From: an uncultured Bacilli bacterium
GTDB taxonomy: Bacteria > Bacillota_I > Bacilli_A > RF39 > UBA660
Assembly (NCBI GenBank): GCA_934176955.1
Contig: CAKPOS010000001.1
Span: forward strand, 28,310-92,309
Reading direction: 5' to 3'
Length of the DNA stretch: 64,000 nt
The position numbers and the translations under genes were made by a program. Position 1 is the stretch's first letter. Every line of letters starts with the position of its first letter. Below the pieces are notes generated by a model, which was not told where the DNA came from, ran no database searches, and saw only the letters and a program-made list of their open reading frames with translations. Positions 33,524-46,528 of the stretch are shown piece after piece.

Positions 33524-34600
33524 ATGAAAAAGGTAGTTATTGGGATGAGTGGTGGCGTAGATAGTTCTGTTGCTGCTTTATTATTAAAAAAACAAGGTTA
33601 TGAAGTCATTGGTTTATTTATGCGAAACTGGGATAGTTCTATTAATAATGATTATTTAGGTAACCCTAATTTAGATCATTCTATTTGTCCTCAAGAAGAA
33701 GATTATAATGATGCTAAGGCTGTATGTGAAAAATTAGAAATTCCTTTACATCGTGTTGATTTTGTAAAAGAATATTGGGATTATGTTTTTACTTACTTCT
33801 TAGATGAATTAAAAAAGGGAAGAACGCCAAATCCTGATGTTATGTGTAATAAATATATTAAATTTGATTTATTTATCAAAGAAGCTTTGAAGTTGGGGGC
33901 TGATTATATTGCTACAGGACATTATGCTAGAATAAAAGATGGAAAGTTACTTAGAGCGGTAGATTTAAATAAAGATCAAACTTATTTTTTAGCTTATGTT
34001 AATCGTGAAAAATTCTCTAATGTATTATTCCCTATTGGAGATTTAGAAAAACCTATGGTAAGAAAAATAGCTGAAGAGAATGGATTGATTACTGCAAAAA
34101 AGAAGGACTCTACAGGAATATGTTTTATTGGAGAAAGAAACTTTACCCAGTTTTTAGAGAATTATTTACCTAATCAACCTGGAGATATTATTGATATTGA
34201 TACAAAAGAAAAGGTTGGAGAACATATTGGTTTAATGTATTATACCATTGGACAGAGAAGGGGACTTCATTTAGGAGGACATCATGAAAAAAGCTATGTT
34301 GCATTAAAAGATTTAGAACATAATATTTTATATGTTGCTAGTGGAAATGAAAATTGCTATTTATATTCTAATAAAGCAATTATTGAAGATTTTAACTTTT
34401 TAACAGATGATCGTCCCAAAAAATGTACATGTAAGTTTAGATATCGTTCTCATGATGTAGAAATTCAAGTTACTTATTTAGAAAATGGTGATTTAGAGTT
34501 ACATTATGACCAGGCAAAGGCTGTAACTCCAGGACAATTTTGTTGTTTATATCAAAATGATGTATGTTTAGGTGGGGGAATTATTAAAGAAGTATTTTAA
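33524..34600 (+). CDS. mnmA: tRNA-specific 2-thiouridylase MnmA
   Basis: PP-loop VVIGMSGGVDSSVAA and catalytic cysteines in conserved context. Confidence 0.9.
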   Translation: MKKVVIGMSGGVDSSVAALLLKKQGYEVIGLFMRNWDSSINNDYLGNPNLDHSICPQEEDYNDAKAVCEKLEIPLHRVDFVKEYWDYVFTYFLDELKKGRTPNPDVMCNKYIKFDLFIKEALKLGADYIATGHYARIKDGKLLRAVDLNKDQTYFLAYVNREKFSNVLFPIGDLEKPMVRKIAEENGLITAKKKDSTGICFIGERNFTQFLENYLPNQPGDIIDIDTKEKVGEHIGLMYYTIGQRRGLHLGGHHEKSYVALKDLEHNILYVASGNENCYLYSNKAIIEDFNFLTDDRPKKCTCKFRYRSHDVEIQVTYLENGDLELHYDQAKAVTPGQFCCLYQNDVCLGGGIIKEVF

Positions 34601-34667
34601 TTTTACTTGACATTTTACTTGACATAATCTGTAAACATGATAAAATAGAATTAGAGAGGGATGGAAT

Positions 34668-35450
34668 ATGAATACTGTTGATAAAATTAATTTAATTTTA
34701 AAAAAAACAAATATCTCTAAAGTTAATTTGGCAAAATATTTAGGCGTTTCTAGACAAATGGTATATAATTATTTAGATAGTGATGATTTAAATAAGATGC
34801 CTGCTGAAAAGTGTCAATTGTTGTTTAATTTATTAGAAGTAAGAAGCTGTGAAGATATTGTAAATAAAGAACTTACTGATGAATATTTACAATCTGTTTC
34901 TAATAAAGTTTTTAATTATAAAAAAATTCCTTCAAAGAAAGAAGAAGTGATTGAACTTTCTGGATTAAAGAAAGAAGAACAAGAAATTATATCTGATATT
35001 GTTTTTCTTTTAAAAGAAATGTTAAATGAAAATAAAACGAAAGAGAGTTATATTACTTTAAAGTATTTATATCATTTTATTCAGTCATTGGCAAATATGA
35101 AGGAAGCAAAATATATATTAGGATACATTGCCAAAAATAATGGTTATTTAAAATATAATGTGTATGATTTTAATGAAGAAAATCAATTTATTTTTGAAAG
35201 CATTATGTATTCTGCAATGACTTTATATACAAATGGTGGCGCTTCAAGAAGTAAGTTAGCCGAATCACATCGTAGATGGGAAGCAGAATTAGAGAGAAAA
35301 AATGAAGAGAAATTAAGTCGTACACAGGAATTGAATACTGCTAAAGTACAAGCACTAAGAGAACTTGGATATACAGAGATTAATGAAAGAAATGCTAGTG
35401 AAGTGTTTGATAAGATAGCAGAAATTCAATCTAGAAATGATAAGTATTAA
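34668..35450 (+). CDS. XRE-family helix-turn-helix protein with a long C-terminal extension
   Basis: HTH ISKVNLAKYLGVSRQMVYNY near the N-terminus. 260 aa. Sits immediately upstream of the cas locus. Confidence 0.55.
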   Translation: MNTVDKINLILKKTNISKVNLAKYLGVSRQMVYNYLDSDDLNKMPAEKCQLLFNLLEVRSCEDIVNKELTDEYLQSVSNKVFNYKKIPSKKEEVIELSGLKKEEQEIISDIVFLLKEMLNENKTKESYITLKYLYHFIQSLANMKEAKYILGYIAKNNGYLKYNVYDFNEENQFIFESIMYSAMTLYTNGGASRSKLAESHRRWEAELERKNEEKLSRTQELNTAKVQALRELGYTEINERNASEVFDKIAEIQSRNDKY

Positions 35451-36054
35451 ATCGTTAGGATGATATTATTCATGAATCTTATTTTCTTACCATTTAAAAT
35501 TTTATTTGCTATTATCTTTTTTCCTTTTAAGATTGTTTTTAAACTGCTTGGAATTCGATGATAACATTGAGCAAATACTGATTCTTCGAAATTCAGTAGA
35601 CCTAACAAAAAGTATTCGTTATAAATTAACTTAATATTTATTTGAATTTTTTTAAAAATGATTTAGTTTTTTTAAATTTTAAGAAATAAAATATGATAAA
35701 ATCATGTCTAAAATTTAGATGTGATTTTTTAAACTCACCGAATTTCAAAGAACCCAAATACTGAAAACCATATCTAATTTTTTAGGTGTGGTTTTTGATT
35801 CCTTTGTATTAAAAATTTATCATTATTTCTTTATTTTGATTTTAATAAATTTATTATCAGATAAAAATAATTAAGTATTTTAAATAAGAAATAATATAAT
35901 GTTTAGTTTTTTAATACAAAGTTCTCTTTTTTGTACAATCAAAATATTTTACGCGATCAATTTTAAATGAAGAGAAGACTTTTCGATAGAAATTTGGTAC
36001 AATGAATTTAGGTAGTAAAAATATAATAAATTAATTAAGAAAGTAGGAAAAATA

Positions 36055-39000
36055 GTGAAAAAAGAAAATTATATTTTAGGATTAGATATTGGAATATCGT
36101 CTGTAGGTTGGGGATTATTAGCTTTAGATGAGAAAAATCAACCTTATAAGATTATTGATGTAGGAAGTCGAATCTTTTCTCCTGGAGAAGTAGAAAAAAC
36201 AGGAGATAGCAGGGCTAAAGAAAGAAGAGAAAAAAGAGGAATTAGGAGAAATATTAGAAGAAAAGAATTTCGACTTGATCGGGTAAGAAATCTATTATAT
36301 GAAGAAGGCTATTTAAAGGGAAATGTAACTAGTAATATTGTTTCAATAAAAAATGAAGAATTATCATTGTTATTTAATCATATGATTTGTCAATATTATC
36401 TTAATAAGAATACTAATCCTTATCGTTTGAAAGTAGAAGCGTTAGATAGAAAGCTAACAAATGAAGAATTATCAATAATATTAGTACATTATGCAAAGAA
36501 GAGAGGATATAAATCTAATCGTGAAGAAGCATCGGAAAATGATTCTGGGAAGGTATTAAGCGCTATTAAAGAAAATGAGAAAATAATGAATGAACATCAT
36601 TATCGTACTATTTCTGAAATGTACATAAAAGATGAAAAATTTAAAAATAAAATCAAAAATAGTCCTGGAGATTATAAGATTTCTGTAACGAATGAAATGT
36701 ATTTAGAAGAAATCAACAAAGTACTCGACAGTCAAATAAAATTTGGAGTAATTACTGATACTTTTAAAGATAAATACTTAGAAATATATAATTCTAGAAG
36801 AAGTTATGCTAAAGGACCTGGAGGCAATTCTCCTTATGGTGGGGATTTAATTGAAAGAATGACTGGAAAATGTAATTTTGATGGGAATCTGAGGGCACCT
36901 AAAAGAGCTTTTTCTTCAGAATTATATGTTGCATTAACAAAGTTAGTTAATCTAAAGTATAAAATTAATGATGGAGAATATAAAAGATTATCTAAAGAAG
37001 AAATCAGTTATATGATAGAAAAAGCTAAAGAAAAGAAAACAACAACATATAAGGATTTGATAAAAGTAATTGGAGAGGAAAATATAGAATTTAAAGAGTT
37101 ATCTCTATCTAAAAAAGAATATGGGAAATTAATTGAAAATTTAAAGAAAAAATTAAATATTGGAAAAGATAAAAAAGTGATTATTCATGAATTATCTAAT
37201 GAAGAGAAAGAGATTTACAATCAATTATATCATAATCAATTATATGATAAAACGTTAATAGAATTAAAAGGTTATCATGTATTAAAAGATAGTATAATAA
37301 AAGCTTATAGTAAAGATATTTGGGAAAAGGTTAAAGATAATGTAGAATTATTAGATGAACTTGCATTATATTGTACAAATTATAAAGTTGATGAAGACAT
37401 ACTAAATAAAATTAAAGAATCAGAAAATATAGATAATATATTTGAAGATATTCACTTTGTAGAATTGTTACCTAACTTTAAAGATCATTTAATGTTATCT
37501 ACAGAATTAATAAGAAAATTAATTCCTATTATGCTTGAAGGTAGTACATATGATAAGGCTATGGAAGAAATTGGATACAATCATTCTGATATAAACGGTG
37601 ATAAGGAAAAGAAAGATTTGTTAGTCCCTGTATGCGTTGATAGTAATATTACTAACCAAAGAGTAATTCGTTCTCTTACTCAAACTAGAAAAGTAATTAA
37701 TTCAATTATTAAAAAGTATGGAACTCCTAAAATTATTAATATAGAAACAGCTAGAGAACTTGCTAAAACTAGACAAGAAAGAAATGAAATAGCAAAAAAC
37801 AATGTAGAAAAGCAAGCTGAAAATGATAAAATTAAAAACCAATTAGTAGAATTAGGTTTATTTTCAAATCTTGATAAGATATCGAGTAATGACTTATTAA
37901 AGTATAAATTATGGAAAGAGCAAAATGAATTTTGTGGTTATAGCATGAAAAAAATATCGATTGAAGATTTATTTCAAAATAATATAGTTCAAATTGACCA
38001 CATATTACCTTATTCAAGAACTTATAATGATAGTTATTTTAACAAAACATTAGTATATACCAAAGAAAATCAAGAAAAAGGAAATAAGACACCATTTGAA
38101 TGGTTTGGTAAAACAGAAAAATGGGATGCATATGAAACATATATTAATCATTTGATGATATCTCAAAAGAAAAAAGATAATTATTTATTAAAGAAATTAG
38201 ATTTTGAGATGGAAAGAGAAATGAGAAATCAGAATCTTAATGATACTAAATATATTAGTAGAGAGTTATCTTCTTTAATTAAAGCATATTTAAATGTTGA
38301 AAAAGTAAATATGTATCCAGGTGCTATTACTTCTAAATTAAGAGCAAGATGGGGATTTAATCGACTTACTCATAGTTATTTATCAAAAACTTATAGATTA
38401 CCGGATGAGATGAAAAAAGATATTAATAAAGATAGAGATAATCATCTACATCATGCAATGGATGCTTTAGTAATCGCTTCTATAACACCATCATTACAAC
38501 AAAAGATAACGTTATATGAGAAGTTTAGTAGATATATTGATGGATTAACTGAATTACAAATTAAAAATATTCCATATATAAAGATAGATGATTCTGAAGG
38601 TCAATATTATAATGATAATACTGGTGAAATAGAAACTATTGATATAAAGGACTACATTAAAGAACAATTAGCAAATAATAATATATATTATAATAAGCAT
38701 AATATTAGTAAGTTAGAATTTCCACTTCCATATGAGGGATTTGATGAAGAAGCAAAGTTAAGAGTATACGAACAAGATTTAGACACTTTAAAATGGAATC
38801 TTCAATCATATAACACATACACAAAAAAAGATATAGAATCATTACATACATTAATACCATCTATTGCAAAATCTAAAATATCAGGTAAAATGCATGAAGA
38901 AACTTACTATGGAATAAAAGAATTTGGTAAAAATGAAGATAAAAAAGTATATAAGACTTTAAGGACACCTATTGAAAAGGTTAAAAGAAAAGACTTAGAA

Positions 39001-39690
39001 AATATTCCAGATAAATCGGGAGGTTCTAAAGAAATTTATGAAACTTTAGTAGAATGGTTTGGTGATTATGAAGTAGGAGAAGAAGTACTTAAAGCTAATG
39101 GAAATAAATATCCAGTATCTAAAAATGATAAAGAGCATAAAGAAATTAGAAAATTAAAATTATATAGTGAATATAAAAATACTGGCCACATGATTAATCA
39201 TAGTAATGTAGAAAAAGGTGGAATATATAGAGTTGATATATTTAAATCTAAAGATCAAGATGATGATAAATTATACTTTGCTGCTTATGATATATTGGAA
39301 ATAAAAAAAATTAATACATTAAGAGAAAAAAAGATGACAGATGATACCTTTACTATAAAATTAGATTATGGTCAAGGAAAAAATAATAGAATAATTTCGT
39401 ATACTGATATTGTAAATCATTATGATTTGTATCTTATTTTAAATAAAAATGATTTAATAAAAGTGATTACAAAGGATGGAAAAGAAAGCGTTGCTTATGT
39501 TGTTGGATGTTCTAGTGGAATGTTTGAAGTAAAAAGTAAATTAGGTGATGGATATGATATTATCGTTAATAGTTTTAATGAAAATAATATATTTAATAAG
39601 CAAAGAAAGCAATATGCAATAACTGTTTCTACAATTAAAAAAGTTAAAAAATTATCCATTAGTGTACTAGGAGAGATAAGTGGGTTATAG
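36055..39690 (+). CDS. cas9: type II CRISPR-associated endonuclease Cas9 (1211 aa)
   Basis: RuvC-I ILGLDIGISSVGWGLL, HNH block IDHILPYSRTYNDSYFNKTLVYTKENQEKGNKTPFEW, RuvC-III HHAMDALVIA. AGGAAAAATA RBS then GTG start. Confidence 0.92.
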   Translation: MKKENYILGLDIGISSVGWGLLALDEKNQPYKIIDVGSRIFSPGEVEKTGDSRAKERREKRGIRRNIRRKEFRLDRVRNLLYEEGYLKGNVTSNIVSIKNEELSLLFNHMICQYYLNKNTNPYRLKVEALDRKLTNEELSIILVHYAKKRGYKSNREEASENDSGKVLSAIKENEKIMNEHHYRTISEMYIKDEKFKNKIKNSPGDYKISVTNEMYLEEINKVLDSQIKFGVITDTFKDKYLEIYNSRRSYAKGPGGNSPYGGDLIERMTGKCNFDGNLRAPKRAFSSELYVALTKLVNLKYKINDGEYKRLSKEEISYMIEKAKEKKTTTYKDLIKVIGEENIEFKELSLSKKEYGKLIENLKKKLNIGKDKKVIIHELSNEEKEIYNQLYHNQLYDKTLIELKGYHVLKDSIIKAYSKDIWEKVKDNVELLDELALYCTNYKVDEDILNKIKESENIDNIFEDIHFVELLPNFKDHLMLSTELIRKLIPIMLEGSTYDKAMEEIGYNHSDINGDKEKKDLLVPVCVDSNITNQRVIRSLTQTRKVINSIIKKYGTPKIINIETARELAKTRQERNEIAKNNVEKQAENDKIKNQLVELGLFSNLDKISSNDLLKYKLWKEQNEFCGYSMKKISIEDLFQNNIVQIDHILPYSRTYNDSYFNKTLVYTKENQEKGNKTPFEWFGKTEKWDAYETYINHLMISQKKKDNYLLKKLDFEMEREMRNQNLNDTKYISRELSSLIKAYLNVEKVNMYPGAITSKLRARWGFNRLTHSYLSKTYRLPDEMKKDINKDRDNHLHHAMDALVIASITPSLQQKITLYEKFSRYIDGLTELQIKNIPYIKIDDSEGQYYNDNTGEIETIDIKDYIKEQLANNNIYYNKHNISKLEFPLPYEGFDEEAKLRVYEQDLDTLKWNLQSYNTYTKKDIESLHTLIPSIAKSKISGKMHEETYYGIKEFGKNEDKKVYKTLRTPIEKVKRKDLENIPDKSGGSKEIYETLVEWFGDYEVGEEVLKANGNKYPVSKNDKEHKEIRKLKLYSEYKNTGHMINHSNVEKGGIYRVDIFKSKDQDDDKLYFAAYDILEIKKINTLREKKMTDDTFTIKLDYGQGKNNRIISYTDIVNHYDLYLILNKNDLIKVITKDGKESVAYVVGCSSGMFEVKSKLGDGYDIIVNSFNENNIFNKQRKQYAITVSTIKKVKKLSISVLGEISGL

Positions 39691-40570
39691 GCAGGTTATT
39701 ATCAAAAAAAGTGAAAAATTACACTTTAAAGACAATCAATTAGTTATTGATAAAGAAGAAAATAGTACTAAAGTGCCTTTGGAAGATATAAGTTATATTT
39801 TAATTGAAGATTCAACAACTATTCTTACGACTAGATTACTTGCTGAATTAGGAAAAAATGCCATATCATTAATTGTATGTGATGAAAAATTTGAACCTAC
39901 GTCGATAATGTATCCCTATAATTATCATTTTAAACAATTAGATGTTTTTACCAATCAATTAGAAATTGATGATAGCATTAAAAATGAATTTTGGAATCAA
40001 ATAGTTAAGAGAAAAATTGAAAATAGTATTAGAGTATTGGAAATGACTTCCAAAGAAGAGTTTCCAATCTCTAAACTAAATGAATATATTAATGAAGTAA
40101 TAGATGGTGATTCAAAAAATAGGGAAGGATTAGCTGCAAAAATGTATTTTCGTAGTTTATTTGGAAGTGATTTTATAAGATTTTATGATGATAATATAAA
40201 TGCTGCTTTAAATTATGGATATACTATAATTGCAAGTGCTATTATCAGAAATTTAGCTGTATATGGACTAAATACTTATTTAGGAATTCATCATAGTTCT
40301 AAGATAAATAATTTTAATTTAGCATATGATTTTTTAGAACCATATCGATCTGTAGTTGATAAATTTATATATGATAATAAAGATGATATTGTATTACCAT
40401 TGTCTTTTGAATTTAGAAAGAAATTAATAAATTTACTAAATAAAGAAGTATTACACCAAAATAAAAAATATACTATTGAATATAGTATAGGATTATTAAT
40501 AAAAAGCTATATAAAATCTTTTTCTACTGGTGAAATAAAATTAGATTTACCTAGTATTATATATGAATAA
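39680..40570 (+). CDS. cas1: CRISPR-associated endonuclease Cas1 (type II)
   Basis: GYRQVIIKKSEKLHFKDNQLVI parallels type II Cas1 [22 protein letters not shown]. GTG start overlaps the cas9 stop by 11 nt. Confidence 0.85.
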   Translation: MGYRQVIIKKSEKLHFKDNQLVIDKEENSTKVPLEDISYILIEDSTTILTTRLLAELGKNAISLIVCDEKFEPTSIMYPYNYHFKQLDVFTNQLEIDDSIKNEFWNQIVKRKIENSIRVLEMTSKEEFPISKLNEYINEVIDGDSKNREGLAAKMYFRSLFGSDFIRFYDDNINAALNYGYTIIASAIIRNLAVYGLNTYLGIHHSSKINNFNLAYDFLEPYRSVVDKFIYDNKDDIVLPLSFEFRKKLINLLNKEVLHQNKKYTIEYSIGLLIKSYIKSFSTGEIKLDLPSIIYE

Positions 40571-40886
40571 TAGATTTATGAGAGTAATTGTAATGTTTGA
40601 TTTACCAGTAATTACAGAAAAAGAGAAAAAAATAGCTACTAAATTTAGAAAATATTTATTAGATGATGGTTTTGTCATGATGCAATATTCTGTTTATTCT
40701 AGAATCTGTAAAAATAATGACGATTTAAATAAGCATATAAAAAGATTAAAAATAAACGCTCCTAAAACTGGGAATATTCGACTACTTCAAATAACAGAAA
40801 ATCAATATAACAATATGATTATGTTTTCAGGTACAAAGTCGGTGGAAGAAGAAATTTCTATAGAAAATTTATTGATATTTGAATAA
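40563..40886 (+). CDS. cas2: CRISPR-associated endoribonuclease Cas2
   Basis: 107 aa, MRVIVMFDLPV...QYSVYSRI pattern. Overlaps the cas1 end by 8 nt. Confidence 0.8.
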   Translation: MNNRFMRVIVMFDLPVITEKEKKIATKFRKYLLDDGFVMMQYSVYSRICKNNDDLNKHIKRLKINAPKTGNIRLLQITENQYNNMIMFSGTKSVEEEISIENLLIFE

Positions 40887-40912
40887 AAAAAACAGGTATA
40901 AACCTGTTTTTT
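40887..40912. terminator. bidirectional intrinsic terminator shared by cas2 and the minus-strand tracrRNA
   Basis: AAAAAACAGGT-ATA-AACCTGTTTTTTT: perfect hairpin with an A-run on one side and a T-run on the other. Confidence 0.65.
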
Positions 40913-41001
40913 TGATCTTTAAGGTTAGATCAAACCTAAGGCATTATGCCTTATTACAGAAACCTGTAAACTTTTAGTAATGTATGTCCAATCTTTCAGG
41001 A
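40887..41001 (-). ncRNA. tracrRNA (about 115 nt) encoded antisense to the cas operon
   Basis: Minus-strand anti-repeat ACAUACAUUACUAAAAGUUUACAGGUUUCUGUAA is complementary, with a few mismatches and wobbles, to the array repeat. It is followed by UAAGGCAUAAUGCCUUA (nexus-like hairpin), a second hairpin, and the terminator. A TTGACT-17-TACAAT promoter sits just upstream. Confidence 0.65.
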
Positions 41002-41008
41002 CAATTTA

Positions 41009-41037
41009 ATTGTATCGTATTTTATTCTTTTAGTCAA
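41009..41037 (-). promoter_or_regulatory. tracrRNA promoter embedded in the 3' end of the csn2-like gene
   Basis: Minus strand TTGACT(41032-41037)-17 nt-TACAAT(41009-41014). The -35 overlaps the last codons and stop (ATT GAC TAA) of the csn2-like ORF. Confidence 0.55.
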
Positions 41038-42079
41038 TGAATTTATTTAATATTTCTAAAAAAAGATTTTGAGTTTCTTTGTTGTCACAAATAATATATT
41101 CACAAGTAATATTTTTAGGTTTATGTAATACAATTTTAATACTATCAGAATTTAATATTTTACTAATTTGATTAGAATATTTATTAATAATATTTTCTTT
41201 AATTTTTATTATTTCTTCAGTAGTGATTAATGATTCATTATTTATATAAAAATCATCAAATAATATAGTACTATTGCTTTTATTATATTCTGTTTTTAAT
41301 ATGTAATTTTTAATTGCTTCATCGATGATATTAAAGTTAATTATTTTGTCTGTTATTTTATATATATTATAATTATTGATATTAATATACTCAAATATAT
41401 TATTACAACTGCTTAATATGAAATGACAATTTTCGTTAGATAGATTATCAATAGTATTTAGTAAATTAATAATTTCATTAGTATTCAAATATACATCGAA
41501 ATTATTAATAATAATTATTGTTGGTTGGTTATCAATTTTTTTAATATCTAAAAAATATAATTGATATAATAGTTTTCTTTTCATTGATTTAGAAATAATA
41601 CTATCATTAAGCAAAACATCATCAATATAAATATTAGTAAATTTATCTATAATAGAATTAATATCAGGTATCTCTATTTGAAATGATATATTACTATCAC
41701 TTTTTTTATTTATTTTTCTATCTAGTAAATTATTTACTTTTTCATCTATTACATCAAATATTTCGTTGGTATATTTAACAATTTTTTCTTCATTAATTTT
41801 ATTAATAACATCATTGTAAATTATTTGTTTTAAAGTATTATTTTTAGTAAATTTAAATTCATTAGTAAAATCATTTTCTTCATTAATACTTATAATATTA
41901 AAATTTTTACTATTATAAGTATTTCCATTTATTAATATATTTTTATTTTTCCCAAGCAAACAATTATTTAATGTATTAATTACTTTATTTTTGTAATTGC
42001 TATTTTTCCCGAAGAAAATTAAGTTTTTATCTAATTTAATTATATTTGGTTGATTATCAATGCTTATAACAATTTCCAT
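41030..42079 (-). CDS. Csn2-like protein (long Csn2 subfamily?), in inverted orientation relative to cas9-cas1-cas2
   Basis: 349 aa, within the ~350-aa range of long Csn2. N-terminal IFFGKNSNYKNKVINTLNNCLLGKNK and C-proximal IIIINNFDVYL...CHFILSSCNNIFEYI follow the Csn2 pattern (from memory: IVGQNNELKYY..GGKK and LIVLKNIDGF...LTFILFPSDQGYL). Sits between cas2 and the array. A 1-kb ORF is highly non-random in ~25% GC DNA. Confidence 0.5.
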   Translation of the reverse strand: MEIVISIDNQPNIIKLDKNLIFFGKNSNYKNKVINTLNNCLLGKNKNILINGNTYNSKNFNIISINEENDFTNEFKFTKNNTLKQIIYNDVINKINEEKIVKYTNEIFDVIDEKVNNLLDRKINKKSDSNISFQIEIPDINSIIDKFTNIYIDDVLLNDSIISKSMKRKLLYQLYFLDIKKIDNQPTIIIINNFDVYLNTNEIINLLNTIDNLSNENCHFILSSCNNIFEYININNYNIYKITDKIINFNIIDEAIKNYILKTEYNKSNSTILFDDFYINNESLITTEEIIKIKENIINKYSNQISKILNSDSIKIVLHKPKNITCEYIICDNKETQNLFLEILNKFID

Positions 42080-42200
42080 TTTTATTATTACCTCAACACA
42101 ATTGTATCAAATATATTTAAAATAATCTATATGTTGGTGTTAATATTTTTTTAAATTCAATATTGTATATTTTTTCTATAAATGATATAATTTATTTGAG
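42080..42200 (+). promoter_or_regulatory. CRISPR leader with extended -10 promoter
   Basis: AT-rich. TGATATAAT at 42183-42191 about 10 nt before the first repeat. Also holds the divergent promoter/RBS of the csn2-like gene. Confidence 0.5.
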
Positions 42201-42968
42201 GTTACAGGACCCTGTTAATTTTTAGTAATGTATAACAAGTTATTATAGTAAATGTTATTATACTACGTTACAGGACCCTGTTAATTTTTAGTAATGTATA
42301 ACAGGAACATGTTGAGTTATATCAACAAGTAAGTTACAGGACCCTGTTAATTTTTAGTAATGTATAACTAAACTAAATGAATTCAAGGGTTTACAAAGGT
42401 TACAGGACCCTGTTAATTTTTAGTAATGTATAACAGCTTGTTTAACTATCTCTTTTGATAATGGTTACAGGACCCTGTTAATTTTTAGTAATGTATAACT
42501 TAAAATGAACGAAAAAAGAGAAAGAATAGGTTACAGGACCCTGTTAATTTTTAGTAATGTATAACTGTTCACAACGTTTTACAATATACACAGCAGTTAC
42601 AGGACCCTGTTAATTTTTAGTAATGTATAACTAGAAGAAATTTAAAAGATAGGTAATTTACGTTACAGGACCCTGTTAATTTTTAGTAATGTATAACATG
42701 GGGTAAAAGTGGAGAATTTGTAAGCAAGTTACAGGACCCTGTTAATTTTTAGTAATGTATAACCACTTCAATTAAAATTGAAAGAGAGGTAAAGTTACAG
42801 GACCCTGTTAATTTTTAGTAATGTATAACTTTTGATAATATAAGTGATTATTTGTATAAGTTACAGGACCCTGTTAATTTTTAGTAATGTATAACTATCA
42901 CAAATAAGGCTAGTAATGTAAGTAAGTTACAGGACCCTGTTAATTTTTAGTAATTAGTAATGTATAAC
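42201..42968 (+). CRISPR. CRISPR array, 12 repeats / 11 spacers, repeat GTTACAGGACCCTGTTAATTTTTAGTAATGTATAAC (36 nt)
   Basis: Eleven identical repeats start at 42201, 42267, 42333, 42399, 42464, 42530, 42596, 42662, 42728, 42794, 42860. Spacers are 30 nt except spacer 4 (29 nt). The terminal repeat 42926-42968 carries a 7-nt TAGTAAT duplication. Confidence 0.95.
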
Positions 42969-43447
42969 ATAATGACAAGATTAATACAAAAAAACTTAAA
43001 TTTTAACGAAATATCAAGATGAACTAAAGAAAATGCAAATAACACACCCACCTATATTACCAAAACAAAAGTTAAAACAGAAATAAGTGTAAACTTAATT
43101 TTTAATAGAGAAGGGGAGAGTGAAAAAAATTCAAGTCCCCTATTTTATATAATAAAAAGTAATTATTTATTGTTATCAAAGTTATCAAAATATAAAATAT
43201 ATTTACCTATATAAAATATTCTATAATAAAATAACGTTATTTATTAAATAAAATTAAAATTATTTAATTCATTTAATTTATAATTTTTTGAATTTATATT
43301 TAATTTTATTTTGAATTATTGTTATTTAAATTCTTTTTAAAAGCTTTAAATTTATCAAAAAAGTTTTATATATAATTAGTTAGATTTTAAATAAAAAAAT
43401 AAACTAAAATTAAAGTTTAGATTTTAAAATTTAATTTGAAATTAAAA

Positions 43448-43650
43448 AGTTGGATAATTATCCATCTCAAGTTAAATTTTAGAGAAATAAAAATGGAATC
43501 GAAAATCAAAAAGATGAATGATTGTACAACTCAAGTTAAATTTAAGTCAAGTAAAATTTAACTTGAGAATTAAAAAATTGGATAACTATCCATCTCAATT
43601 TAAATTTTTTTTAATTTAGATCTCTAAATTTAATTTGAGTTGATGAATGA
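43448..43650. repeat. cluster of nested direct/inverted repeats with DnaA-box-like palindromes in an ORF-free region
   Basis: TTGGATAATTATCCATCTCAAGTTAAATTT (43450-43479) and TTGGATAACTATCCATCTCAATTTAAATTT (43578-43607). Between them is the palindrome CTCAAGTTAAATTT...AAATTTAACTTGAG. CAACTCAAGTTAAATTT (43527) and its inverted partner (43627-43645) are flanked by direct GATGAATGAT copies. Confidence 0.5.
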
Positions 43651-43978: not shown

Positions 43979-46528
43979 TTATTTTAATTTTTCTTTTAAC
44001 TCATATAATAAATTTAAAGCTTTTAAAGGGGTTAATTCTAGAACGTTTGTTTGTTTTAAGATTTCTTCAACTTCGCTTTTTTCAGTTATTTTTTGAGAAA
44101 TAACATCTAGTGGTAAACTTGTTTGAATAGCAATTTCTTTTTTACTTGGATCGTTATTTTCATAAGCTGCTAATATTTCAGATGCTCTACTTAACACTTC
44201 GTTTGGTAATCCTGCTAATTTAGCAACATTAATTCCATAACTTTTGTCGACACTACCATCTTTTACTTTGTGTAAAAAGATGATATTTTCTCCATCTTCT
44301 GACGCAGATACATGTTTATTTTTTAAGTGCTTTAACTCTTTTTCTAATTTAGTTAATTCATGATAATGCGTTGAAAATAACGTTTTACAACCAATTGTAT
44401 TGTTTACATATTCTAATATTGCTTGTGCTAGACTCATTCCATCATAAGTAGCAGTTCCCCTACCCAATTCATCGAATAAAATCAGACTACTTTTGGTAGC
44501 ATTTTTTAAAGCGTGTGTAGCCTCAATCATCTCAACCATGAAAGTAGATTCTCCACTGACTAAGTCATCACTGGCACCTATTCTTGTGAATATTTGGTCG
44601 AATATTGGCATTTTTGCTTCTTTTGCAGGGACAAAACATCCTATTTGGGACATAATAGCAATTATTCCTAATTGTCTCATATAAGTACTTTTTCCAGCCA
44701 TATTAGGGCCTGTAATTAATAGTGTATATACACCGTTATCCATTACAATATCATTAGGAACATATTCTCCTTTAATTACTCTTTCTACTACAGGATGTCT
44801 TGATTCTATTAATTTTAAGCTATGATCTAATGTTAAAGTTGGTCTTACATAATTATATCTTTCACTCACTGAGGCAAAGCTTTGTAAAACATCTATTTCG
44901 CTAATTGTTTTAGCAATTTTTTGTAATTTAGGAATATATTTTTTGATTTTATCTCTAATTTCGATAAATAGTTCATATTCTAAATTAATGATTTTTTCTT
45001 CTGCACTTAGAATTAAATCTTCTTTTTCTTTTAAAAGAGGAGTAATAAATCTTTCACAATTTGTTAAAGTTTGCTTTCTAATATAACCCATATCCTCTCG
45101 AATTAGTCCTAAGTTACTTTTAGATATTTCAATGTAATAACCAAATACTTTATTAAATCCTATTTTTAAATTTTTTATTCCTGTTCTTTCTTTTTCTTCT
45201 AATTCGAATTTGCTGATGAAGTCCTTTCCCCCACTTCTTAATTCTTTTAGTTCATCTAATTCACTGGAGTAACCTTTTTTGATTAAATATCCTTCTTTTA
45301 AGGTAATAGGGGGTTCTTCATAAATGGCTGCTTCTAGGAGGTCATATAAGTCTGATAAGGGGTTGATGTCACTATAAAACTTTATTTCTTTTAACATTTC
45401 TGCAATGATAGGTAATACTTTTAGGGAATTTTTTAATTGAATTAAATCTCTTCCATTGGCATTTCCTAAAGCTATTCTTCCACTTAATCTTTCTAAGTCA
45501 TAAATTTCATATAAATTTTTTCTTAAATCTTCTGCTAAGATAAATTCTTCGATTAATTTGCTGACAACTTCATGCCTTTTTTCAATGGGTTTCTTTTCTT
45601 TTAATGGAGCTTCAATCCATTGTTTTAATTTTCGACTTCCCATGGCTGTTTTAGTATTATCCAAAAGCCATAGTAAAGAGTAATTTCTATCTTTTAAACG
45701 AAGACTTTCTGTTAATTCTAGATTTCTTTTGGTATGAATATCCATCTTTAAGAAATTGTCAGTTTCATTAATGATTACTTTTTGTAAGTGACCTAAGCTT
45801 CTTTTTTGATTGATAACTAAATAATATAGTAAATGTTTAATCGAATTGATATAGCGACTATCGGTAATCCCCTTATAGCAGAATTTATATTCTTCTGTTT
45901 CAAGAATGTTATTTACCAATGTTACAGTTAAGTGATATTGTTCTTTTAGTAAATGAATAATATTAGAATTTACTAATTTGTTAATAATTACTTCTCTTAA
46001 TCCAAAAGATAAGATATCGTTAATTAATTTATCATCATCATGAGGAATGATTTCAGCATATAATTCTCCAGTTGTAATATCTGTATAGACAATAGAATAG
46101 CAATATTCATAATCATAGATGCTCCCAATATAATTATTTGTTTTTTCATCTAAGCTATTAGAACTAATAATGGTTCCTGAAGAAATCACTTCTGTAACAT
46201 CTCTTTTAACAATTCCTTTGGCAGATTTTGGATCTTCTAATTGTTCACAAATAGCCACTTTAAATCCTTGTTTAATTAGTTTATCAACATAAATATCTAC
46301 TGCGTGATGAGGAACGCCACACATGGGTACTCTTTCTTCTAAGCCAGCATTTCTTCCTGTTAGTGTTAATTCTAGGGCATGAGAGACGACTTCAGCATCT
46401 TCAAAGAACATTTCATAGAAATCTCCTAAGCGATATAATAAGATTACATCGGGATATTTGTCCTTTAATTCAACATAATGCCTCATCATAGGGGCTAATT
46501 TTGTTCTATCAATTTCACTTATTTTCAT
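43979..46528 (-). CDS. mutS: DNA mismatch repair protein MutS
   Basis: N-terminal mismatch-binding MMRHYVELKDKYPDVILLYRLGDFYEMF. Walker A GPNMAGKSTYMRQ. 849 aa. A CCCTTATATTATAAGGG terminator lies downstream on the minus strand. Confidence 0.9.
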   Translation of the reverse strand: MKISEIDRTKLAPMMRHYVELKDKYPDVILLYRLGDFYEMFFEDAEVVSHALELTLTGRNAGLEERVPMCGVPHHAVDIYVDKLIKQGFKVAICEQLEDPKSAKGIVKRDVTEVISSGTIISSNSLDEKTNNYIGSIYDYEYCYSIVYTDITTGELYAEIIPHDDDKLINDILSFGLREVIINKLVNSNIIHLLKEQYHLTVTLVNNILETEEYKFCYKGITDSRYINSIKHLLYYLVINQKRSLGHLQKVIINETDNFLKMDIHTKRNLELTESLRLKDRNYSLLWLLDNTKTAMGSRKLKQWIEAPLKEKKPIEKRHEVVSKLIEEFILAEDLRKNLYEIYDLERLSGRIALGNANGRDLIQLKNSLKVLPIIAEMLKEIKFYSDINPLSDLYDLLEAAIYEEPPITLKEGYLIKKGYSSELDELKELRSGGKDFISKFELEEKERTGIKNLKIGFNKVFGYYIEISKSNLGLIREDMGYIRKQTLTNCERFITPLLKEKEDLILSAEEKIINLEYELFIEIRDKIKKYIPKLQKIAKTISEIDVLQSFASVSERYNYVRPTLTLDHSLKLIESRHPVVERVIKGEYVPNDIVMDNGVYTLLITGPNMAGKSTYMRQLGIIAIMSQIGCFVPAKEAKMPIFDQIFTRIGASDDLVSGESTFMVEMIEATHALKNATKSSLILFDELGRGTATYDGMSLAQAILEYVNNTIGCKTLFSTHYHELTKLEKELKHLKNKHVSASEDGENIIFLHKVKDGSVDKSYGINVAKLAGLPNEVLSRASEILAAYENNDPSKKEIAIQTSLPLDVISQKITEKSEVEEILKQTNVLELTPLKALNLLYELKEKLK

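Follow-up and report, generated by a model that had tools for sequence, protein, structure and literature searches.

A type II-A CRISPR-Cas9 locus with a non-canonical gene order in an uncultured Bacilli lineage of the gut

Genes and signals of the locus

In the window, the whole 64,000-nucleotide stretch of DNA analysed here, an overlapping operon of cas9, cas1 and cas2 on the plus strand converges with csn2 and a tracrRNA on the minus strand, the two units meeting at one symmetric terminator. A 121-nt intergenic region is common to the divergent csn2 and CRISPR array. An earlier note on this DNA had described a convergent type II locus with these parts, and every element was found in the sequence. 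The source lineage is tagged "Tenericutes" or "Bacilli bacterium" in sequence records. The features are as follows.

35995-36003, plus strand: candidate cas9-cas1-cas2 promoter, extended -10 TGGTACAAT, read from the sequence
36042-36048, plus strand: candidate ribosome-binding site AGTAGGA, read from the sequence
36055-39690, plus strand: cas9, 1211 aa, GTG start (TIGR01865, E=2.7e-184; Pfam HNH_4 and RuvC_III)
39680-40570, plus strand: cas1 (type II), 296 aa, GTG start (TIGR03639 cas1_NMENI, E=2.5e-84)
40563-40886, plus strand: cas2, 107 aa, ATG start (TIGR01573, E=3.5e-28)
40885-40913, both strands: symmetric intrinsic terminator A8-CAGGT-ATAA-ACCTG-T7, read from the sequence, common to the cas operon and the tracrRNA
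40885-41003, minus strand: predicted tracrRNA, about 117-120 nt (fold, covariation, anti-repeat), its exact 5' end placed from the -10 box
41003-40985, minus strand: 5' hairpin of the tracrRNA
40985-40953, minus strand: anti-repeat, a degenerate repeat copy (complementarity to the repeat)
40953-40937, minus strand: nexus-like hairpin UAAGGCAUAAUGCCUUA of the tracrRNA
40932-40913, minus strand: tracrRNA hairpin UGAUCU..AGAUCA
40913-40885, minus strand: terminator hairpin of the tracrRNA
41009-41037, minus strand: predicted tracrRNA promoter, -35 TTGACT (41037-41032), 17-nt spacer, -10 TACAAT (41014-41009), from sequence and conservation
41030-42079, minus strand: csn2 (long form), 349 aa, both Walker motifs (A and B) degenerate (profile match, fold)
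42090-42109, minus strand: candidate csn2 promoter (extended -10 TGATACAAT, 42109-42101) and ribosome-binding site GAGGT (42094-42090), from sequence
42080-42200, plus strand: leader, 121 nt, overlapping the divergent csn2 promoter region (conservation)
42183-42191, plus strand: predicted array promoter TGATATAAT in the leader, a conserved TGnTATAAT
42194-42200, plus strand: leader-end motif ATTTGAG, followed by GTTACAGG
42201-42968, plus strand: CRISPR array of 12 repeats of GTTACAGGACCCTGTTAATTTTTAGTAATGTATAAC (36 nt) and 11 spacers (29-30 nt)

The coupling of the three plus-strand genes proposed earlier was verified as overlaps of 11 nt between cas9 and cas1 and 8 nt between cas1 and cas2, and profile searches recovered all three proteins at the E-values listed. 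The non-ATG starts attributed to the operon hold for cas9 and cas1 (both GTG) but not for cas2, which starts with ATG and whose protein has an N-terminus kept from residue 1-3 in relatives. Automatic gene callers elsewhere give a 97-aa version of cas2. The catalytic motifs of Cas9 are intact (LDIG with D12, INIETAR with E564, DHILP with H649, and HHAMDA at 799-804), so that the type II signature of RuvC-I, RuvC-II, RuvC-III and HNH is present, with cas1 and cas2 adjoining cas9 and an array in the same locus. By sequence comparison, the closest solved Cas9s are of the Nme/Geo type and the SaCas9 type, not SpCas9. TGnTATAAT-like boxes occur upstream of cas9 in relatives at a distance similar to that of the candidate promoter.

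The element described as a perfect bidirectional terminator closing the operon is indeed a palindrome, whose helix carries compensatory changes in relatives and which would fold into the 3' hairpin of the minus-strand RNA. A consensus promoter/terminator scanner did not list this shared terminator, presumably because the A and T runs can lengthen the stem.

The left boundary of the locus had been placed too far upstream: position 34668 belongs to an unrelated 260-aa HTH gene (34668-35450), separated from cas9 by 600 nt. In relatives this gene adjoins mnmA and is found on either side of the CRISPR cassette; because the mnmA neighbourhood is kept while the cassette side varies, we dropped it as a CRISPR regulator. 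A longer cas9 starting at 34668, or one read in an alternative genetic code, was also rejected. Translation tables 4 and 25 leave 162 stops between 34668 and 39690; no alternative genetic code is required, and the first ORF encodes an HTH protein of its own.

Csn2, tracrRNA and the array

The identity of the 349-aa protein, which had been called Csn2-like subject to an HMM check, is supported by a profile match and by the predicted fold, although the Pfam and NCBIfam models were silent: against both collections (including TIGR01866) no family was returned at E<=0.1. Likewise, a profile of 21 Csn2 homologues found none of the PDB sequences at E<=10, and ten distant relatives gave only weak, sub-threshold AAA-type matches in Pfam. 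Of the comparisons with PDB entries only that by fold succeeded, in which a model of the monomer matched 3zth_B over 279 residues. Its Walker A motif reads GKNSNYKN where GxxxxGK[ST] is expected, and its Walker B motif IIIINNFD where hhhhD is expected. The protein thus agrees with a long Csn2 in size (about 320-350 aa for the class), in its P-loop fold of the ABC/SMC type and in the inactivation of its ATPase motifs. More distant members of this family, found in loci of the same kind, have both motifs in canonical form, GxxxSGK[ST] for Walker A and hhhhDxFD for Walker B. Stu0660-like long Csn2 proteins assemble as tetrameric rings; these bind the ends of double-stranded DNA and associate with Cas1-Cas2 and Cas9 when spacers are captured. 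At the same place relative to csn2, relatives also have a -10-like box followed by a ribosome-binding site.

Beyond the terminator, the minus-strand tracrRNA proposed by the earlier note is supported, at the level of sequence, by a conserved promoter, four covarying helices and the anti-repeat, behind which come the 3' hairpins and a terminator, as in other type II tracrRNAs. The minimum free energy of the predicted RNA is -35.8 kcal/mol (z=-5.1 against shuffles). Imposed on an alignment of 14 relatives, the named structure has 95.7% of its cells paired and compensatory changes in five pairs, a result reached by 0 of 500 shuffles. When RNAalifold was given all 18 tracrRNA sequences, misalignment of the distant ones left just two hairpins and no covariation, and Rfam searches at permissive and gathering thresholds returned no tracrRNA or CRISPR-DR family. 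The duplex of repeat and anti-repeat comprises 29 Watson-Crick and three G-U pairs of 36, and the anti-repeat co-varies with the repeat in relatives. The final codons of csn2, together with the first base of its stop, make up the -35 box of the promoter, and TTGAC(T/C/A)-17/18-TAnnAT overlaps the csn2 stop in related loci in the same way. The promoter scan found 84 sites where shuffles predicted 75, which is no enrichment in this AT-rich DNA, and the promoter/terminator scanner is uninformative at 20-25% GC; the promoter calls made here therefore rest on conservation and not on the scan.

The leader and the 12-repeat plus-strand array were both present beyond csn2, as the earlier note had it. 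Directly 5' of repeat 1, TGnTATAAT and (A/T)TTTGAG are near-invariant in the related loci examined, with one exception that reads TTTAAG. ATTTGAG is the leader-end motif of group 1 type II-A systems and is needed for adaptation in Streptococcus thermophilus CRISPR1 (PMC5382924); here it likewise abuts a repeat starting with GTT. Within repeat 12 a stretch of 7 nt is duplicated, and this degenerate repeat marks the far end of the array. Contigs that encode an identical Csn2 fall into two kinds, some with the same set of 11 spacers and others whose array is without the four csn2-proximal spacers; these four, which are also leader-proximal, are thus absent from sister strains. Strains with a 99% identical Csn2 have no spacer in common with the window. 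Spacer 8 (42698-42727) matches a phage contig at 30 of 30 positions, inside an ssb gene. It was the only one of six spacer patterns scanned to find a protospacer in IMG/VR, the other five giving nothing, and comparison of the spacers with GenBank phages gave only chance-level matches. The 3' flank of the single protospacer is ATATTTT, one match being insufficient for a PAM.

Orientation, subtype and activity

The arrangement supports transcription of the crRNA from the plus strand and of the tracrRNA from the minus strand. The plus-strand orientation of the array claimed earlier is borne out by four agreeing cues in the sequence: the leader promoter and (A/T)TTTGAG motif 5' of repeat 1, the degenerate repeat at the far end, the polar gain of csn2-proximal spacers, and the order of parts in the tracrRNA. 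The opposite assignment, in which the array is read from the minus strand and the tracrRNA is a plus-strand transcript of the DNA that follows cas2, draws on the fact that complementarity of repeat and anti-repeat cannot by itself settle the strand, that the symmetric terminator fits either, and that the arrays of Neisseria meningitidis and Campylobacter jejuni run contrary to the degenerate-repeat cue (PMC3737331). It would, however, yield an RNA with the hairpins 5' and the anti-repeat 3' and no terminator behind, while the conserved -35/-10 tracrRNA promoter faces the minus strand, the conserved array promoter and ATTTGAG abut repeat 1 in the plus-strand sense, and new spacers gather at the repeat-1 end. 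We consider this assignment extremely unlikely.

The canonical II-A order is cas9-cas1-cas2-csn2-leader-array (PMC3737331, PMC5382924, PMC10734277), and type II organisation has been called "nearly uniform" (PMC10734277). The locus departs from the canonical pattern of co-oriented genes with leader and array downstream of csn2: its leader lies upstream of, and divergent from, an inverted csn2, as it does in 15 of 16 related loci. The convergent layout is shared by 15 of the 16 related genomes in which both csn2 and cas9 are visible, which marks it as a feature of the lineage rather than an error of assembly, and it recurs in more than ten independent metagenome assemblies of the same strain, which is among those carried in Hadza gut samples. 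Clostridium sp. CAG:433 is another example of a locus with an inverted csn2. The orientation that the earlier note found unusual is thus unusual against the canonical order, yet the rule in its own lineage. A full-text literature search on csn2 orientation and Walker A/P-loop terms, which did not cover the major catalogues of type II loci, found no account of an inverted csn2. Subtype II-A is defined by gene content, the canonical order being typical but not defining (PMC3737331, PMC10734277); the II-A call therefore stands on its csn2 signature, by profile match and fold, and not on gene order.

Could the locus really be type II-C, with the 349-aa gene an adjacent and unrelated defence gene for an ABC/OLD-type ATPase? 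The cas9-cas1-cas2 core operon is shared with the II-C systems of N. meningitidis, C. jejuni and Geobacillus, Cas9 is most similar to solved II-C structures, and Cas1 matches the NMENI-type model. Unlike II-C systems, which are without csn2, the locus has a conserved csn2, and its array is preceded by a classical leader that contains a promoter and the II-A anchoring motif; a II-C identity is scarcely credible. A further reading, that the locus is a silent, intact-looking relic or its inverted arrangement an artefact of assembly, might appeal to the many spacers (most of them) without a known target. It is nevertheless very improbable, given an arrangement seen in 15 related genomes and many independent assemblies, open reading frames and motifs that are all intact, polar spacer differences between near-identical strains of the kind expected of ongoing acquisition, and a spacer with an exact phage match.

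We conclude with high confidence that the locus encodes a functional CRISPR-Cas9 system of type II-A, carried by an uncultured Bacilli lineage of the gut that is low in GC, and that its gene order is specific to that lineage. Of the two outcomes that the earlier note said would overturn its reading, a II-C typing of a locus whose 349-aa ORF has no Csn2 match and an array read from the minus strand, neither emerged from the sequence analysis. That the system is probably active, as suggested previously, is consistent with the intact catalytic motifs and with the strain-specific csn2-proximal spacers and the exact ssb protospacer, which make the system look active. By analogy with S. pyogenes and S. 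thermophilus, the array would be transcribed from the TGnTATAAT promoter ending three bases upstream of repeat 1, and the anti-repeat of the tracrRNA would pair with each repeat, the duplex then being processed by RNase III and Cas9. Cas9, with its RuvC and HNH sites intact, would cut matching PAM-adjacent phage DNA, and Cas1-Cas2, together with a ring-forming, ATPase-dead Csn2 and Cas9, would add spacers at the ATTTGAG/repeat-1 junction. Inversion of csn2 would alter the transcription units and leave the mechanism unchanged.

Relation to known systems and significance

Among the closest parallels is the S. thermophilus CRISPR1-type II-A system (St1Cas9, group 1 leader). Both have the same four cas genes, and in both Csn2 is of the long type (~350 aa) and adopts the Stu0660 fold. 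Their repeats measure 36 nt and their spacers 30 nt, ATTTGAG closes the leader immediately ahead of a repeat beginning with GTT (PMC5382924), and in the tracrRNA a 5' anti-repeat precedes the 3' hairpins. The locus described here differs in that csn2 is inverted between cas2 and the array, that the tracrRNA follows csn2 immediately instead of lying in another part of the locus, and that the leader is upstream and not downstream of csn2. The structural alignment of Csn2 with Stu0660 shows an identity of only 14%, and neither Pfam nor NCBIfam recognises this Csn2; Cas9 matches Nme/Geo- and Sa-type structures at E=1e-116 to 1e-57, as against 1e-43 for St1Cas9. The canonical II-A system of S. pyogenes has the same components and presumably works in the same way, with a dual-RNA-guided Cas9 and with adaptation that depends on Cas1, Cas2, Csn2 and Cas9. 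S. pyogenes differs, however, in its short Csn2 (~220 aa) and ACGAG-type leader end (PMC5382924), its uniformly co-oriented genes and its tracrRNA upstream of cas9, and SpCas9 was absent among the Cas9 sequence matches at E<=1e-5.

The locus is a non-canonical gene order within a known kind of system, and the known mechanism of type II-A immunity is unchanged by these findings. They do bear on how such loci are annotated. Pipelines that expect a co-oriented csn2 with the leader behind it (as in PMC5382924) would mis-orient the array or call the locus II-C, and those relying on the Csn2 models of Pfam and NCBIfam run the same risk; the correct orientation can be read from the conserved promoter, the ATTTGAG junction and the tracrRNA. 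The analysis also defines a predicted crRNA:tracrRNA pair for the Cas9 of this uncultured lineage of human-gut Bacilli; the 1211-aa protein is a candidate editing enzyme once its PAM is known.

The block in which csn2 and the tracrRNA diverge from the leader and array is found on either side of cas9-cas1-cas2 and in either orientation to it (loci of the window type differ in this from L016). In L003, L004 and L006 it is only the array that is flipped. These placements of the block, the Walker-intact relatives and the II-C-like Cas9 could together mean that an early II-A stage has been kept, one at which a II-C-like core gained as its neighbour an ABC-type ATPase that was still active and formed a transcription unit of its own, the ATPase activity being lost later. 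That this block and not the cas operon is the conserved unit, and that the lineage preserves such a stage, is a speculative reading which we regard as rather unlikely. On the same speculative footing, read-through of csn2 could be coupled to tracrRNA output by way of the tracrRNA promoter that overlaps its stop codon. The type II organisation tolerates inversion of the csn2/tracrRNA/array block, and the relatives whose ATPase motifs are intact offer a route to asking whether the ancestral Csn2 hydrolysed ATP.

A csn2 gene facing the cas operon

Judged by profile evidence, the 349-aa protein encoded beyond the cas terminator is classed as a divergent Csn2 of the long form, which makes the locus type II-A; the earlier note had proposed a Csn2-like gene and type II-A. 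PADLOC profile PDLC01597 ('Csn2; CAS-II-A; acquisition_associated') matches the protein at E=5.1e-104, with residues 1-349 aligned to profile positions 1-338, and a second Csn2 model matches weakly (2.3e-4), though Pfam and NCBIfam gave no match at E<=0.1 and a search of PDB sequences with a profile of 21 homologues found none. Both Walker motifs are degenerate (Walker A, GKNSNYKN; Walker B, IIIINNFD), in keeping with the description of Csn2 as a P-loop ATPase that has been inactivated (PMC10734277). The family is small, since an exhaustive profile search of 1.84 billion proteins gave only 91 clusters at 50% identity, and it is already catalogued, given that PADLOC has a dedicated Csn2 profile.

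Features of the locus and its upstream neighbours
33524-34600, plus strand: mnmA
34668-35450, plus strand: HTH gene, 260 aa
between the HTH gene and cas9: AT-rich spacer, 600 nt
36055-39690, plus strand: cas9, GTG start, 1211 aa (TIGR01865, E=2.7e-184)
39680-40570, plus strand: cas1, GTG start (type II model TIGR03639, E=2.5e-84)
40563-40886, plus strand: cas2, ATG start (TIGR01573, E=3.5e-28)
40885-40913: symmetric terminator A8-CAGGT-ATAA-ACCTG-T7, into which the cas2 stop codon runs
~41003 to 40885, minus strand: predicted tracrRNA (fold)
41037-41032 (-35 TTGACT), 17-nt spacer, 41014-41009 (-10 TACAAT), minus strand: predicted tracrRNA promoter
41030-42079, minus strand: csn2, 349-aa ORF
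between csn2 and the array: intergenic region, 121 nt
42183-42191 and 42194-42200: leader elements (extended -10 box; ATTTGAG)
42201-42968: CRISPR array, 12 repeats of 36 nt and 11 spacers of 29-30 nt

The window has about 25% GC and the standard bacterial code fits. The catalytic motifs of Cas9 are all intact: LDIG (D12), INIETAR (E564), DHILP (H649) and HHAMDA. Overlaps of 11 nt (cas9/cas1) and 8 nt (cas1/cas2) are as the earlier note gave them, as is the terminator closing the operon; the non-ATG starts claimed for all three genes hold for cas9 and cas1 and fail for cas2. The left edge that it drew at 34668 has to be abandoned: this is the start of the HTH gene, which in relatives always lies beside mnmA, to one or the other side of the cassette, and is therefore not part of the CRISPR system. 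The whole cassette sits between mnmA-HTH and mutS in an orientation that varies by genome (window flanks 33524-35450 and 43979-46528, compared with related loci L001, L007, L008, L009 and L017).

A scan that took one genome for each species yielded 23 related loci, which belong to uncultured gut MAGs labelled 'Tenericutes' or 'Bacilli bacterium' and to Clostridium sp. CAG:433 and have Csn2 identities of 34-77%. Where both csn2 and cas9 are seen, csn2 converges with cas9-cas1-cas2 in 15 of 16 loci, and more than 10 independent metagenome assemblies with identical or 96-99% identical Csn2 have the layout of the window. Because the layout recurs in this way, the inversion of csn2 beyond the cas2 terminator, as first read from the window, is a trait of the lineage and not a misassembly. 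L016 is the sole exception, with cas9-cas1-cas2 followed by the array and then by csn2 co-directional with cas9; at L016:4050-11059 array, csn2 and tracrRNA are turned round as one block with respect to cas9-cas1-cas2. The array lies directly upstream of csn2 and divergent from it, as in the window, in 18 of the 21 related loci with an array found; array and leader are flipped, reading towards csn2, in L003 (7955-9243), L004 (29-328) and L006 (8136-8699). What remains linked is a block of tracrRNA and csn2, read in one direction, with leader and array diverging from them.

Leader, array and predicted tracrRNA

A TGnTATAAT-type extended -10 box, in the crRNA sense, is present at every related locus examined, and (A/T)TTTGAG (TTTAAG in one) then abuts the first repeat directly; both elements also precede the first repeat in the three flipped arrays. 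The same region of 65-121 nt also contains a putative promoter and RBS for csn2, pointing the opposite way. Type II-A leaders of 'group 1' end in ATTTGAG, a motif that S. thermophilus CRISPR1 needs for adaptation and that goes together with long Csn2 (PMC5382924). The final repeat of the array contains a 7-nt internal duplication.

The predicted tracrRNA promoter overlaps the end of csn2, its -35 box consisting of the final codons of that gene plus the first stop-codon base, and this overlap is conserved in related loci. A degenerate repeat copy at 40953-40985 is the anti-repeat, which matches the 36-nt repeat with 29 Watson-Crick and 3 G-U pairs and co-changes with it in divergent loci (e.g. 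L010, L019, L023). The predicted RNA folds (MFE -35.8 kcal/mol, z=-5.1 against shuffles) into a 5' hairpin, a nexus-like hairpin UAAGGCAUAAUGCCUUA, a UGAUCU/AGAUCA hairpin and the terminator. Across 14 relatives 95.7% of cells in these four helices are paired, against only 31-53% in slid controls, and 5 pairs are changed on both sides, a number reached by 0 of 500 shuffles. No Rfam family matches. A plus-strand tracrRNA was rejected, as its hairpins would fall 5' of the anti-repeat, with neither promoter nor terminator. Thus both the plus-strand leader and 12-repeat array and the minus-strand tracrRNA beside csn2, as earlier proposed, agree with these conserved, putative signals.

Several further observations concern these RNAs. 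The 5' stem-loop (UGUCC...GGACA, 41003-40985, minus strand) lies directly upstream of the anti-repeat, outside the repeat duplex; G-U and compensatory changes preserve it in the 14 close relatives, and more distant loci carry a hairpin of different sequence at its position (ACAUC/GAUGU in L019, GUGUUCA/UGAACAC in L017). In L023 (2100-2313), the tracrRNA gene downstream of csn2 seems to be partly duplicated, since one more degenerate segment resembling the repeat separates the promoter and 5' hairpin from the anti-repeat. Each repeat is palindromic in its 5' half (positions 2-18; window 42201-42218: UUACAG-GACC-CUGUUAA, in which one U is in excess), so that a local hairpin can form there in crRNA and tracrRNA alike; to our knowledge, this is not a feature associated with type II repeats.

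Spacer content and the terminus region

The array of L033, with identical Csn2, has the same 11 spacers as the window, and four samples with identical Csn2 carry the series W5 W6 n6 n7 W9 W10 W11 (W, spacers of the window; n, spacers of other arrays). By this comparison the window has four extra csn2-proximal spacers and shares those at the trailer end. Strains with 99% identical Csn2 have zero spacers in common with it. Spacer 8 matches an IMG/VR contig at 30/30 positions, inside ssb; this contig encodes SSB, a replication initiator, a Holliday-junction resolvase and an endolysin. Nothing significant came from five further spacer patterns or from a search of GenBank phages. Intact Cas9 motifs, spacer differences between strains and the phage match of spacer 8 point, as the earlier note had supposed, to a system that is probably active.

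Spacer 11 (42896-42925) and spacer n3 of the related locus L025 are near-identical (TATCACAAATAAGGCTAGTAATGTAAGTAA and AACACAAATAAAGTTAATAATGTAAGTAA) in otherwise unrelated arrays, which suggests that the two were acquired independently from variant forms of a single protospacer; the pair has no match in IMG/VR. Downstream, the plus-strand segment 43837-43864, AGTTCCTATAATTTATATTATGTAAACT, agrees with the B. subtilis dif site at all but 3 of 28 positions (chance expectation, 0 matches), and near 44 kb the GC skew changes sign and gene orientation converges; the array probably adjoins the replication terminus. The interval from the array trailer to the dif-like site holds a non-coding 64-nt unit in about three tandem copies (43419-43650), which contains the palindrome TTGGATAATTATCCA and CTCAAGTTAAATTT motifs, direct and inverted.

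Known systems and distant Csn2 relatives

Its gene content, its leader motif, the fold of its Csn2 and the lengths of repeats and spacers make this a II-A system of the St1-CRISPR1 kind. Unlike in St1-CRISPR1, csn2 is inverted, the tracrRNA lies directly behind csn2 and the leader is upstream of csn2, and the Cas9 scores higher on Nme/Geo- and Sa-type solved structures than on St1Cas9; SpCas9 gave no match at E<=1e-5. Type II organisation has been termed 'nearly uniform' (PMC10734277), and searches of the accessible literature, Chylinski et al. 2014 and the Makarova classifications excepted, turned up no account of such a layout. The gene order is non-canonical yet conserved in the lineage.

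Canonical Walker A (GxxxS/A/C-G-K-S/T) and Walker B (hhhhDxFD, x = N/D) motifs are kept in distant members of the Csn2 family; in the subclade of the window's Csn2 both are lost. The motif-keeping members comprise several library representatives and five from the same kind of locus (genes L016:10001-11056, L017:114-1067, L019:10001-11065, L022:9962-10909 and L023:1018-2046; proteins P0157, P0163, P0176, P0199 and P0181), at 20-41% identity, each with Csn2 PDLC01597 as its best PADLOC match. If these Walker-intact proteins are active ATPases, the textbook view of Csn2 as an inactivated ATPase would need qualifying.
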